64,000 nt of DNA from an uncultured Acidobacteriota bacterium (GTDB lineage Bacteria; Acidobacteriota; Terriglobia; UBA7540): positions 32,001-96,000 of the forward strand of contig CAWDSK010000002.1 of NCBI GenBank assembly GCA_963804995.1, in the 5' to 3' direction. This document shows positions 60,368 to 64,000 of the stretch, piece after piece. The notes beneath the pieces were generated by a model. That model worked only from the letters and a program-made list of their open reading frames with translations, ran no database searches and was not told the origin of the DNA. The number at the start of each line of letters is the position of its first letter. The first letter of the stretch is position 1. The position numbers and the translations under genes are program-made.

Positions 60368-60449
60368 GAGCGTGTCACCTCCTGGCTGTAATAAATGCGT
60401 AACAAAGGTAGCACAGGGCAAGGGGAGGTTCAAGGTAGAAAGGGGGATC

Positions 60450-60856
60450 ACCGCCGAGGCGCGGAGACGCAGAGAAGGAAGGTAGCGCGGACCCCCGTGG
60501 TTGGGGTCCGCGGTTCTTCGTTTGGAATAGTCGCAAATGGTGGTAACGGAGAGCCGCGCTGAGCCTGCATAAACTTGATTGCACGGAGGAAGAGCCGAAC
60601 GAGCAAAAGTATCTCGCGCAGAGACGCAGAGGCGCAGAGAAAACAAATCAGTTATTTGCTTAAAATCTCTGCGCCTCAGCGGCTCTGCGCGAGATTATCT
60701 ATTTTTTTCACAGTTCTTCGTTAGGAATAGCCGCAGAGGGTGGTATCGGAGAGCCGCGCTGAGCCTGCATAAACTTGATTGCACGGAGGAAGAGCCGCAG
60801 ACCTCAAAAGCGGAGGTCTGCGCTGCGTTTCCTCTGCGCCTCCGCGTCTCTGCGGT
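60450..60856. repeat. Nested repeat cluster: REPIN-like element with duplicated spacer plus GAGACGCAGAG palindromes
   Basis: GTAGCGCGGACCCC...GGGGTCCGCG at 60482; ~85-bp direct repeat 60513-60597 / 60713-60797; ctcgcgcagagacgcagaggcgcagag / ctctgcgcctcagcggctctgcgcgag inverted pair. Confidence 0.75.
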
Positions 60857-60888
60857 GACGAACAATGATGATTGTGTTTAGGGAAGCG

Positions 60889-61620
60889 TCAGCTTAGCTT
60901 ATTCCCCGCGTGCAGGCCGCACTCTTTCTTGGTGGCTTCTTCCCACCACCAGCGGCCTTCGCGTTCGTGCTGGCCCGGCAGAACGGCTCGCGTGCAGGGT
61001 TCGCACCCGATGGAAATGAAGCCGCGCTCATGCAAGGGATTGAAGGGAACGTTGTTTTCCCGAATGTAGTCCCAAACTTGCTTCGAGCTCCAATTGGCCA
61101 GGGGGTTAAACTTCACCAGGTCCCGTTCCGGGGTCGCGAACGTGGGGTCAGCTTGTACGACGGGGACAACGGCGCGCGTCGACGGACTCTGGTCGCGGCG
61201 CTGCCCGGTGACCCAGGCGTCCATGGTGCCCAGCGCCCGTCGCAGCGGCTCCACCTTGCGAATGCCGCAGCACTCCTGGTGCCCGTCCTTATAGAACGAG
61301 AAGAGGCCTTTCTCGCGCACCAGCTTTTCCACCGCTTCCGGCCGCGGGAAGAAAACCTCGATGGGCAGGTTGTAGTGCTCACGCACCCGGTCGAGGAAGC
61401 GCAGCGTTTCCGTGTGCAGGCGCCCGGTGTCGAGTGAAAAAACGCGGAACTTTCCTCCCAGCTTCGCGGCCAAATCCACCAGCACCACATCTTCCGCGCC
61501 GCTGAAACTGATGCCGATCTGGGGAGAGAACATTTCAAACGCCAGCGCCAGGATCTCCCGCGGATGTCGCTGGGCGTAGGTTTCGGCCAGTTCGGCCCAA
61601 TTTGCAACTTCAGTCTGCAT
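60889..61620 (-). CDS. cysH: Phosphoadenylyl-/adenylyl-sulfate reductase
   Basis: [49 protein letters not shown]...CxxC indicates the Fe-S APS-reductase type. Confidence 0.95.
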
Positions 61621-61672
61621 GGTTGTTTTCCTTTTCGAGTTATAAGTGAAGGTAGGAGACAGGAGCGAGGAG

Positions 61673-61883
61673 CTAGTGTGGTGTCCCGGTTAATATTTGA
61701 CAAGGCTGTCCGACCCCCTCACCCCCCAGCCCCTCTCCCCCAAAGGGGCGAGGGGAGAGTTAATTTTCTTGCCCTCGCCCCTTTGGGGGAGAGGGTGGCT
61801 GGCCGAGGCGTTCTCATCAGCCGAGGCCAGACGGGTGAGGGGGTTCTACCCATTGTCAACTCTAACTCGGGACACTACACTAG
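61673..61883. mobile_element. MITE with CTAG-bounded terminal inverted repeats (complete copy)
   Basis: CTAGTGTGGTGTCCCG ... CGGGACACTACACTAG; internal CCCTCTCCC palindromes; no convincing ORF. Confidence 0.8.
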
Positions 61884-62024
61884 GAGTTAGAAGGGTTGTG
61901 GGCAGATTGTGGAGGCATTCAGCTTGCCAACTCCTAACTCCTCACTTCTAGCTCCTTACTCCTGCCTTCTGAGTTCTGACTCCTAACTTCTAGCTCCTAG
62001 CTCTTCACTCCTAGCTCCTGCAGC

Positions 62025-62795
62025 TTATCCCACCAGCAGGCGCGCTCCCAAAGAAAAATAGAGAACACTAAAGAGCCAACTGAAATAGCGCTCCGGAATG
62101 ATGCGGGTCAGGCGGCTCCCCAAAACGACGCCGGGGAGTGACCCCGCCGCCACGCGCAGGAACAGGTGGCTATCAAAATGCCCCAGCCACACGTGCATCG
62201 TTCCCGCCAGCGCCATGGTGGCGAGACCATAGAGAATGTCCGTGCCAACCAACTCGCCCAGCGGGTAAGGCGTGAGCAACAACAGGAAGACCATCAGCAG
62301 GCTGCCGCTGCCAATCGAGGTGAGCGCCACTAGAAATCCCACCAGCGCCCCAGCCAGGACCAGTTTGATGCCGGCAGAGCGGGAAGGCGCATCCACCCAA
62401 ATCTTGGGCGGCTTGATCTTCCCCAACCGCACCAGCGGCAGCACGAAGGCCACAATGAAAAGCGTGACGCCGAGCACACTCCGCAGCACATGATCGAGTT
62501 GGCCGACTCCAAGGTGAGCCTTCAGGTAGTGAATCAGCAGCATTCCGCCCACGGTCCCCGGTACGGTGCCCGCAATCAGGAAAGTCGCGAGTCTCCAGCG
62601 AACTTGCCCGAGCCGGCGGTGCTCAAACACACCCACGAGCTTGGTGAAGGCGCCGTTGACAATGTCCGTGCCGATGATGGTGACCGCGGAATATGGGGTC
62701 AGCACCATCAACAAGGGAGTCAGCAGCACGCCGCCGCCGGTGCCCGTCATTCCGATCAGTGTCCCCGTGATAAAGCCGATGATGGTAATGAACAT
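62025..62795 (-). CDS. TSUP (TauE/SafE) family sulfur-compound transporter
   Basis: GMTGTGGGVLLTP, IGTD, LTSIGSGSL, LVGTD; about 8 TM segments; upstream of cysH. Confidence 0.9.
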   Translation of the reverse strand: MFITIIGFITGTLIGMTGTGGGVLLTPLLMVLTPYSAVTIIGTDIVNGAFTKLVGVFEHRRLGQVRWRLATFLIAGTVPGTVGGMLLIHYLKAHLGVGQLDHVLRSVLGVTLFIVAFVLPLVRLGKIKPPKIWVDAPSRSAGIKLVLAGALVGFLVALTSIGSGSLLMVFLLLLTPYPLGELVGTDILYGLATMALAGTMHVWLGHFDSHLFLRVAAGSLPGVVLGSRLTRIIPERYFSWLFSVLYFSLGARLLVG

Positions 62796-62867
62796 AAGCC
62801 GTTACCGCCGATTGTTCCCGCTGCTTCCCGCCCTGCAAGCTGACTGACTCTCGCCAGAAGGCCACCC

Positions 62868-62910
62868 AAAAACAAAAACGCCCGCTGGCGTTATCTCCGT
62901 CAGCGGGCGT
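62868..62910 (-). terminator. Intrinsic terminator of the attenuator (3:4 helix)
   Basis: Minus strand ACGCCCGCTGACG-GAGATAA-CGCCAGCGGGCGT followed by TTTTGTTTTT. Confidence 0.85.
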
Positions 62911-62947
62911 CTCAGATTAGGAACTGTTTGAGTGGGTCTTACAAGTC

Positions 62948-63043
62948 CTACTTCTCTGAGGTGACAACGCCGCTGCCGGATGGGGTACAACAACACATCC
63001 GCCGGGCGCCCTGGGTCCTCATCGAGTTGGAACTTGTAGCCAT
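62948..63043 (-). CDS. Cys-rich leader peptide (31 aa) MATSSNSMRTQGARRMCCCTPSGSGVVTSEK
   Basis: Hand translation; TGT TGT TGT run; sits between the promoter and the terminator upstream of the sulfur-assimilation genes. Confidence 0.78.
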   Translation of the reverse strand: MATSSNSMRTQGARRMCCCTPSGSGVVTSEK

Positions 63044-63054
63044 TAAGAAAGCAG

Positions 63055-63083
63055 ACGATACCATGGCCACGACACTCTGTCAA
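63055..63083 (-). promoter_or_regulatory. Sigma70 promoter of the leader-TSUP-cysH unit
   Basis: Minus strand TTGACA-17nt-TATCGT with TGG extended -10; -10 ends 11 nt before the leader ATG. Confidence 0.7.
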
Positions 63084-63205
63084 TACGCCTGGATGAAATT
63101 TTTGATGCATGGTTGTTATTAGCATGATAGGGGTCATTATGTTGGTGCCCGTGCGGTGCTGGCGCGGTTCGGCTAACCATTGTCAAGTAAAGAGCAGACG
63201 CACCC

Positions 63206-63367
63206 CTAGTGTGGTGTCCCGTGCTAGAGTTGACAATGGGTAGAACCCCCTCACCCGTCTGGCCTCGGCTGATGAGAACGCCTCGGCCAGCCACCCTCTC
63301 CCCCAAAGGGGCGAGGGCAAGAGAATTAACTCTCCCCTCGCCCCTTTGGGGGAGAGGGGCTGGGGGG
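63206..63367. mobile_element. MITE, second copy (inverted), interrupted by an IS4-family element
   Basis: Begins CTAGTGTGGTGTCCCG; near-identical reverse complement of ~61722-61883; breaks off after GGGGGG at 63367. Confidence 0.8.
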
Positions 63368-64000
63368 CATAGGCGCTAGAATAGCTCATTCGATGCTCCT
63401 AGGCGAAGTTGTTGCGCGTGGAGGAGGCGGTTCATAAGGAGCGAGAGCGGGTGCCGGAATTTTTCTCGATCGTAGATTCGTTTTCGAGGTGCCTCGGTTA
63501 AAGCCTGACGCGCCAGGGGCCAGCGATGTTGTTTAACCCGCAAGGAGAAGGTCCCGTAAATGGCCAGGATCAAATCCAAATGGTGCAGATGCACCCATCG
63601 CCACAGGCTAAGCCGCGACGCTCCGGCAGCGGGGAACTCCCCAGGGGGAAATAGAAACGGCCTCCTCATGCAAACACTGAATCAGGGCCACCTCAATCAA
63701 CTTGGCCAGACAGTAGGTGCGCACCAAGCCGGGGTCGAAGGCGCGGAGCTGATCAAAATGCAAGAGGCCTTTGCAGCGTTTAAAGAACAGCTCAATCTGC
63801 CAGCGGATGCGGTAGAGTTCCAGGACCACGTCGTCACTGGCGAGGGCTTCCGGCAAAGTGGTCAGCACACAGAAATAGCCGGCCAGACGCAAGGCGGTGG
63901 CCTGCGGGGTGCGGCCTTTTTTGGCGGCATTGCGGCGCAAGCGCTGACGGCTGCGGTGGGCTGCTTCGCTGGGCAGAGGGCGAATCAGCAGTCGCACCGG
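63368..64000 (-). mobile_element. IS4-family (IS186-like) element, right part
   Basis: Transposase YREK motif LYRIRWQIELFFKRCKGLL (ORF 63608-63997, 5' end outside window); element end reads CATAGGCGCTAG. Confidence 0.85.

Follow-up and report, generated by a model that had tools for sequence, protein, structure and literature searches.

A candidate cysteine attenuator in front of tauE–cysH

Which signal decides whether RNA polymerase reads into the tauE and cysH genes of this uncultured Acidobacteriota bacterium? We addressed this question in a window of 64,000 nucleotides, which is the whole stretch of DNA that was analysed, and in which a first-pass annotation had read the region upstream of the two genes as trp/his-type attenuation with stalling at Cys codons under cysteine limitation. 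Four lines of evidence agree with such attenuation in response to the supply of Cys-tRNA, namely conservation, an intact frame, gene context and footprint-constrained folding, and we predict, with a probability of roughly 85%, that the tauE–cysH leader is a classical ribosome-mediated transcription attenuator that senses charged tRNA-Cys. Judged from sequence and folding models, the leader shows four features that define classical attenuators with a leader peptide: a short ORF, located between promoter and first gene, with consecutive codons for the end product (present in the sequence), an intrinsic terminator past the ORF and before the first gene (sequence and folding), an antiterminator that shares the 5' arm of the terminator (folding, pairing in an alignment of relatives and a joint swap of three strands in one relative), and a fitting spacing, whereby a ribosome at the control codons would free region 2 and a ribosome further on would cover it, provided that no pairs span the ribosome. 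The features are listed in Table 1.

Table 1. Features of the tauE–cysH locus, with positions numbered from the first letter of the window.
Feature	Position	Strand	Details
Predicted sigma70-type promoter	63055..63083	-	TTGACA 63083-63078, 17 nt, TATCGT 63060-63055, TG extension; start site expected near 63048
Leader ORF, 31 codons, without SD	62948..63043	-	ATG 63043, TAG 62950-62948, peptide MATSSNSMRTQGARRMCCCTPSGSGVVTSEK
Met codon and three UGU Cys control codons	62987..62998	-	TGT-TGT-TGT 62995-62987; also one protector strand (region 1)
1:2 protector (fold-back of the whole ORF)	62939..63040	-	about -41 kcal/mol; includes GGATG/CATCC and TACAAGT/ACTTGTA
Region 2, switch strand	62955..62975	-	CAGCGGCGT 62975-62967 and CTCAGA 62960-62955
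Region 3	62901..62916	-	TCTGAG 62916-62911 and terminator 5' arm ACGCCCGCTG; pairs either with region 2, as antiterminator, or with region 4
Region 4 (terminator 3' arm) and U tract	62868..62887	-	arms 62910-62901 / 62887-62878, U tract to 62868
tauE/TSUP-family membrane protein, 256 aa	62025..62795	-	PF01925, E 2e-42
Palindromic repeat element, 211 bp, 16-bp inverted ends	61673..61883	.	inserted between tauE and cysH
cysH, APS reductase type, 243 aa	60889..61620	-	TIGR02055 270 bits (cut-off 235)

The promoter, the 31-aa ORF with its three consecutive TGT codons and the terminator with its U tract were all found where the first-pass annotation had placed them. The promoter matches the consensus at 10 of 12 positions and carries a TG extension; promoter-like sites are scarce in the surrounding region, with two between 60000 and 64000 compared to 0.9 in shuffled sequences. 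Within the ORF, Met is codon 16 and the Cys control codons are codons 17–19, and region 2 begins 11 nt past the last of them. Three codons beyond the TAG of the window lies an in-frame TAA (62941-62939), which ends the 34-aa ORF of most relatives. The leader as a whole is folded more stably than each of 200 shuffles (z = -3.66), and the terminator hairpin amounts to about -22 kcal/mol. A covariance scan of 61400-64000 against Rfam gave 19 weak matches, none of which reached the gathering score and none of which lay over the leader; the matches of microRNA-like, frameshift-element and sRNA type fell on the palindromic repeat, below the gathering score, and were rejected.

Downstream, tauE starts 72 nt past the U tract, and no promoter-like site was found between the terminator and tauE of the window. 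The TSUP transporter and the APS/PAPS reductase that had been named as the controlled genes were both recovered, whereby cysH passes the cut-off for APS reductases and misses that for PAPS reductases (TIGR02057, 146 against 254). From its sequence, the TauE/TSUP protein is likely to take up sulfate or sulfite.

The surroundings of the two genes are rich in repeats. The 211-bp palindromic element is not part of the attenuator. The gap between tauE and cysH that contains it measures 408 nt in the window compared to 39–274 nt in relatives, and the element may affect co-transcription of cysH. A second copy, from 63206 to about 63370, lies upstream of the promoter and is interrupted by an insertion sequence, and the element has about 44 matches of nearly full length in the genome, along with 66 end motifs. 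The stretch 63396-64000 is the end of this DDE transposase insertion sequence (PF01609), which sits inside the repeat element and has six near-identical copies in the genome. Low-complexity purine repeats occupy 61890-62020 (minus strand) past tauE, and further repeated palindromic stretches are found past cysH (60440-60880).

Conservation of the leader at tauE loci

Loci of relatives were collected by a TauE protein search with no filter on leader sequence, which gave matches in 40 of 61 genomes and 30 loci including the window. Promoter, an ATG–Cys-run–stop frame and terminator all lie upstream of tauE in 25 of these 30 loci, and cysH follows 3' of tauE in 26 of them. Thus, the alignment of relatives that had been called for did return both the Cys-run ORF and the terminator. 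The remaining five loci comprise one whose Cys run is truncated by the end of the contig (L022), one with a frameshifted tauE (L030) and one with tauE behind a sat-like gene (L024), the latter two having a covariance-model match upstream (at a distance of about 1.2 kb in L024), as well as two more distant tauE copies (L023 and L025; 55–57% identical) that are located inside other operons. Since the genomes with tauE loci are kin, these counts overstate independence.

The frame of the leader is open in all 25 loci over 31–41 codons (34 aa in 15 of them), and indels between start and stop keep it, while the two shifted frames contain stops in 25 and 23 of the 25 loci. The Cys codons of these leaders are TGT in 93 cases and TGC in 6, compared to 27% TGT in the long ORFs of the genome. 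Among the 15 leaders of 34 codons, the non-consensus fractions by codon position are 0.067, 0.124 and 0.076, that is, there is no third-position excess, which points to a constraint on the RNA; on these sequences, the leader peptide itself is likely to be without function. The stretch between terminator and tauE is not conserved and varies from 27 nt (in L013) to 185 nt.

The ATG at 63043 had been described as near-leaderless. Its position and the missing SD are borne out, and an SD-like motif occurs in only 2 of the 25 leaders, but strict leaderlessness fits the relatives less well: the distance between the -10 hexamer and the ATG is 11 nt in the window, 15–17 nt in 16 loci out of the 21 at genus level (11–17 nt in all 21) and 19–33 nt in the four remaining loci, giving a range of 11–33 nt over the 25. 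About 6 nt were counted in the other Terriglobia leaders L042, L055 and L165. On the sequence evidence, the start of this leader is SD-less, probably with a short UTR and thus probably not strictly leaderless. Taken together, the leader is conserved at the sequence level ahead of sulfur genes, here and across many related Acidobacteria.

Competing helices and the position of the ribosome

Base pairing was analysed on two alignments. Alignment A1 contains 24 of the 25 leader loci (L006 was left out as a near-copy of L003), and alignment A2 contains 46 of 64 prepared references, with near-duplicates left out by hand. As A2 misaligns region 2, 2:3 pairs were counted on A1 only, and partner bases derived from a fold were not used as covariation evidence because they pair by construction.

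Two structures came out of RNAalifold on the 24 leaders, the terminator and a protector made by the entire ORF folding back on itself. In the latter, the UGU codons are joined to the CAGCGG strand largely through G-U pairs, in a helix that is 98–100% paired. Over the full protector, which was derived from the same alignment, pairing amounts to 93.5%, a value that none of 500 shuffles reaches, and 14 cells have changes on both sides. The simpler 1:2 hairpin suggested earlier, GGATG (63000-62996) and CATCC (62982-62978) on the minus strand enclosing the Cys codons, is present, contributes -4.6 kcal/mol as five pairs on its own and is paired in 82% of cells when extended to eight pairs; the conserved protector, however, is the whole-ORF fold-back of -41 kcal/mol in the window, of which this hairpin is one part.

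The postulated 2:3 antiterminator was returned by the constrained MFE, where region 2 (CAGCGGCGT and CTCAGA) pairs with 62910-62901, with one bulged C, and with TCTGAG (62916-62911). Both helices are conserved in A1, with 93.4% of cells paired, four cells changed on both sides and 1 of 500 shuffles scoring as high. Changes on both sides thus occur in the protector and in the 2:3 helices, but the core six-pair CAGCGG/CCGCTG helix shows one-sided changes only. In L028, regions 2, 3 and 4 are swapped together, with CAGTGG, CCACTG and CAGTGG replacing CAGCGG, CCGCTG and CAGCGG. Past the Cys run, a complement of the terminator arm is retained at constant spacing. In the window alone, the antiterminator score was reached by 2 of 20 shuffles and is not significant by itself; support for the antiterminator comes from conservation.

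Folding with and without a ribosome was carried out with a switch model in which folding is limited to the RNA 3' of the ribosome, as it stands before synthesis of region 4. This restriction was adopted after folding with pairs across the ribosome had given no switch; when such spanning pairs are allowed, the switch disappears in the window (0.6–0.87 at codons 22–32). With 3'-only folding, the probability that the terminator arm of the window is held upstream is 0.89 at the first two Cys codons, 0.00–0.04 five codons past the run, and 0.24 with the ribosome at the stop or with none. With footprints of 6, 9 and 12 nt, this probability is at least 0.7 at the first Cys codon in 25 of 25 loci. With the ribosome at the stop, 23 of the 25 loci (23–24 across the three footprints) have a value under 0.5; the medians over the 25 loci are 0.98 at the first Cys codon and 0.10 at the stop. 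When no ribosome is present, the probability is below 0.5 in 21 of 25 loci, while the other four still fold as antiterminator. The predicted switch holds only if spanning pairs are barred. The E. coli leaders thrL, trpL and pheL gave the same switch profile in this model. The hisL control was not switched off at its stop (0.7), which marks the folding model as crude.

When the full-length RNA of the window is folded at equilibrium, the terminator is the prevailing structure wherever the ribosome is placed (0.79–1.00). Its lead at the Cys codons is 8–13 kcal/mol, and the corresponding values for the controls are 5–8 (thrL), 5–6 (trpL), 3–11 (pheL) and 19–24 kcal/mol (hisL). Read-through would thus have to rest on a kinetic trap, as it does for the E. 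coli controls in the model.

Gene context of similar leaders

A DNA-only pattern consisting of a Cys-codon run, a spacer and terminator arms, which is blind to genes, was run against 185,579 GTDB genomes and matched 98 places, 80 of which were examined with their flanks. Downstream genes of all 80 were assigned through tblastn searches based on 13 reference proteins. Because the pattern fixes codon use and terminator sequence, neither was counted on this set. In 57 of the 80 distinct matches, and in 50 of the 52 that are titled as Acidobacteriota, a same-strand sulfur gene follows downstream at no more than 1.6 kb. The first sulfur gene of the 57 is tauE in 18 cases, sat in 12, a sulfite reductase gene in 10, cysD in 6, cysH in 4 and a cystathionine lyase gene in 3, as well as cysI, cysG, a rhodanese gene and cysK in one case each. 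In the switch model, the switch falls 1–6 codons past the Cys run in 53 of the 57 sulfur-linked matches versus 6 of the 23 others. Several matches lacked a short ORF, a switch or a sulfur gene and were rejected as chance matches, including L040, L041, L044, L054, L060, L075, L076, L078, L082, L088, L104, L105, L107–L110 and L112.

A covariance model built from 46 leaders gave matches at an E-value of 0.01 or better in 58 of 151 class-level genomes and in 42 of 61 relatives. From 30 class-level loci, 26 were inspected, with the four others repeating earlier loci and some of the 26 also having been seen before. Among these 26 are 23 leaders with a Cys run, for the most part ahead of tauE, sulfite reductase, sat or cysH/cysD, two His-run leaders before hisI and one match that was not called; weaker matches of the model may be His leaders or plain terminators. 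The leaders of other families can be aligned only at the Cys run and the arms, and their peptides have little in common but the Cys run. Among the 51 sulfur-linked leaders with an ATG start, an internal Met adjoins a Cys codon in 32 and is absent there in 19.

Outside the Acidobacteriota, seven matches are sulfur-linked, namely L050 and L071 (Fodinibius salsisoli) from Balneolaceae, L074, L079, L086 and L091 from Clostridia, and L118 from Limnocylindrales. The Balneolaceae leaders (L050, L071 and also L106) are rich in both Cys and Met and stand before cysI or rhodanese-cysI. The clostridial ones (those named and L068) have 21–24 codons with a run of three Cys codons, a promoter, an SD-like site and a terminator; four of the five are followed by genes for cystathionine lyase or cysK-like genes, and the fifth lies at the end of its contig. 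In Bacillota, T-boxes are the usual means of controlling such genes. Some leaders stand before genes of other kinds. A close copy of the tauE-type leader (L093:4001-4124, minus strand) is followed by the gene for an outer-membrane barrel protein of 1083 aa that contains a carboxypeptidase-like domain and might serve to take up a sulfur source. Further Cys leaders precede a beta-carbonic anhydrase (L158), a sulfide:quinone reductase-like flavoprotein that scores below the family cut-off (L172) and, in Ignavibacterium, a DUF4395 protein (L072). On one Terriglobia contig, two almost identical Cys leaders stand at a distance of 3.7 kb from each other, one before sulfite reductase and the other before cysH (L083/L113).

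Other leaders in the same genome

In the 7.55-Mb genome of the window, 5 of 103 short ORFs with a run of three Cys codons or more have a terminator-like hairpin within 110 nt past the stop, and runs of three Cys codons with a sigma70-like promoter 20–100 nt ahead occur at three places. Only two sites pass both filters, namely the tauE leader and a leader in front of a sulfite-reductase gene. The remaining matches with Cys run and hairpin are C6:258974, C6:906936 and C5:1082614; the first was rejected, as was the second, which lies inside a coding region. A BLAST search of the tauE leader against its own genome returned itself and 12 short chance matches, and nothing else.

The second Cys leader (C3:307580-307780, plus strand) has 25 codons with Met-Cys-Cys-Cys and its own promoter and terminator, precedes a 751-aa nitrite/sulfite-reductase-like gene and shows the same switch profile as the leader of the window, with which it has its layout in common while the sequences are unrelated. 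A His-codon leader with a similar terminator (C2:749970-750160, minus strand) stands before hisI-hisG-hisD-hisC, with gene names read from translations, and His leaders before his genes are also present in relatives (L171, L173). By its sequence, C2:749970-750160 is a classical his attenuator in Terriglobia. The genome contains one SAM-I riboswitch (C6:1949217-1949323, minus strand), which is located before threonine-synthase-like and O-acetylhomoserine sulfhydrylase-like genes (names again from translations), and no T-box was found in the genome, which is 92% complete. There is also no Cys-codon run in the 445 nt upstream of its cysS; the cysS matches at C5:179739-181242 (plus strand) are split over two frames that change near 180507, which may reflect an error of assembly.

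Proposed mechanism and alternative explanations

From the elements, their conservation and the gene context, all of which are observed, we infer that the leader is translated, that it terminates transcription and that it responds to cysteine. The sigma70 promoter would give a transcript that starts about 5 nt before the SD-less AUG. When cysteine is plentiful, the ribosome would either move on across region 2 or come off the RNA, whereupon, in the latter case, the ORF would fold back and the UGU codons would pair with region 2; region 3 would then be free, and the conserved 3:4 terminator is predicted to stop RNA polymerase near 62870. When cysteine is scarce, the ribosome would pause at codons 17–19, covering region 1 and freeing region 2, which could pair with region 3 while region 4 is still to be synthesised, so that transcription would continue into tauE–cysH, given the kinetic trap. 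The Met codon ahead of the Cys run might, speculatively, add sensing of methionine.

It might be that the leader ORF encodes a small Cys-rich peptide that binds metal or sulfur, with a constitutive terminator behind it, and that tauE–cysH are transcribed from elsewhere or by leaky read-through. Within the genus, ORF length and sequence are indeed conserved, and the terminator does win at equilibrium. We nevertheless consider such a peptide very improbable, as third-position changes are not in excess, peptides of other families resemble each other in little but the Cys run, and UGU is used 93 to 6; moreover, no promoter-like site separates the terminator from tauE, the gap there goes down to 27 nt, and the complement of the terminator arm keeps its distance past the run. 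A similarly slight chance, if anything a smaller one, is given to a ribosome-independent switch, that is, a riboswitch or an RNA-binding protein that controls the terminator in response to a sulfur metabolite, with an incidental ORF. The high nucleotide conservation across the leader within the genus, the long conserved stem and the use of a SAM-I riboswitch elsewhere in the genome would suit it. Yet no Rfam match reaches the gathering score, the UGY run varies in length by whole codons in frame with start and stop, His codons replace Cys codons before his genes while the layout is unchanged, and leaders of other families are unalignable apart from run and arms.

Stalling at the Cys codons could also act mainly on translation of tauE or on RNA stability, as in mycobacterial polycysteine sORFs, the terminator then being secondary. 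The sole tested mechanism for a Cys uORF that we found in the literature is translational (bioRxiv 10.1101/834739, as far as the accessible part of this source goes), and SD-less starts are common to the mycobacterial sORFs and the tauE leader. Here, however, the tauE start is 72 nt past the U tract behind a stretch that is not conserved, and the complementarity that is conserved is to the terminator arm, which makes us regard a mainly translational effect as hardly probable. More weight is due to the proposal that the attenuator reads methionine and cysteine jointly, or a general slowing of translation, more than cysteine alone. It would explain the internal Met that adjoins a Cys codon in many leaders, and the switch model allows antitermination at pauses from about codon 11 to codon 19. 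On the other hand, the window has one Met versus three Cys codons, the adjacent Met is lacking in 19 of 51 leaders, and the AUG is possibly kept for the GGAUG/CAUCC pairing; we hold joint sensing to be unlikely. An attenuator that senses charged tRNA-Cys thus remains our preferred reading.

Significance and comparison with known systems

Terriglobia are an abundant soil group, and to our knowledge, their gene regulation is barely known. The locus provides a complete candidate of about 220 bp with promoter, control codons, protector, antiterminator and terminator, and in Terriglobia, such leaders are found repeatedly, ahead of genes for most of the steps by which sulfate is taken up and reduced. 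The mechanism of attenuation itself is textbook, and the Cys leader can be used for finding new sulfur-acquisition genes. As a tentative wider view, to which we give somewhat less than even odds, terminator-based Cys attenuation as predicted here might be a main means by which Terriglobia control the assimilation of sulfur, and look-alikes of it might exist in Balneolaceae, Clostridia and Chloroflexota; the UGU codons might double as a wobble-paired strand that holds the switch; and the leaders before the barrel transporter, the beta-carbonic anhydrase, the sulfide:quinone reductase-like protein and DUF4395 might mark unrecognised routes of sulfur acquisition, e.g., the scavenging of carbonyl sulfide or sulfide.

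In the literature, which was searched mostly outside subscription papers, we found neither a description of this Cys attenuator in Acidobacteria nor a tested case of cysteine control by a terminator switch with a leader peptide. The accessible part of PMC2965389 assigns a known function to almost none of the predicted Acidobacteria attenuators, that of PMC13236596 cites only translational control for cysteine genes, and cysteine is not mentioned in what is accessible of the main texts of PMC4833913 and PMC11109978. Poly-Cys leader ORFs had been taken to be described mainly in Actinobacteria. Cases from Actinobacteria are indeed known, with no conserved terminator hairpins according to the accessible part of the report (Seliverstov et al., 2005; PMC1262725), but the accessible part of a later study also has a case from Rhodobacterales, uORFC-8-2, a two-Cys uORF with a terminator before cysS that was predicted and for which ribosome-mediated attenuation was proposed (Brewer et al., 2021; PMC8632094). 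As far as these sources go, the cysteine attenuator is not the first of its kind, since a Cys-codon uORF with a terminator was predicted earlier for cysS of Rhodobacterales (PMC8632094).

With uORFC-8-2 as it appears in the available portion of PMC8632094, the tauE leader has in common tandem Cys codons in a uORF, a stem that holds the Cys codons and a U-tailed terminator. In that portion, uORFC-8-2 is alphaproteobacterial, has two Cys codons that are mostly UGC, is found only upstream of cysS and has no named antiterminator, whereas the tauE-type leaders have at least three Cys codons, almost all UGU, a defined 2:3 helix and many sulfur-assimilation genes behind them, and belong to Acidobacteriota. 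The two are set apart by description, and an assignment of the window leader to uORFC-8-2 was rejected, as it lies upstream of tauE–cysH with three UGU codons and not of cysS with two Cys codons that are mostly UGC.

Among the mycobacterial polycysteine sORFs, which exert translational control, the tested locus acts by hiding the SD, and termination was shown not to be involved there, according to the accessible part of Canestrari et al. (bioRxiv 10.1101/834739), where uORF attenuation for cysteine is stated to be previously undescribed. On that partial view, the mycobacterial sORFs resemble the tauE leader in a Cys run within an SD-less or leaderless first ORF, in their cysteine or sulfur genes, in several loci per genome and in base-paired Cys codons, and differ from it in that the tauE leader has a conserved terminator and its partners of the Cys tract, as predicted from folds of the leader, lie within the leader. 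T-box and SAM-I (S-box) elements likewise bring about conditional intrinsic termination before sulfur genes, but unlike the tauE leader as proposed, they need no translation, and neither model matches the leader. With the trpL, thrL, pheL and hisL leaders of E. coli, the tauE leader has in common a short ORF with a run of end-product codons, the 1:2, 2:3 and 3:4 helices, an intrinsic terminator and a biosynthetic operon. In contrast to these, the tauE leader is predicted to sense cysteine ahead of genes for sulfur uptake and reduction, its ORF is longer (31–41 codons) with the run in the middle and the stop 12–18 codons later, its start is SD-less, and its protector is a fold-back of the whole ORF.
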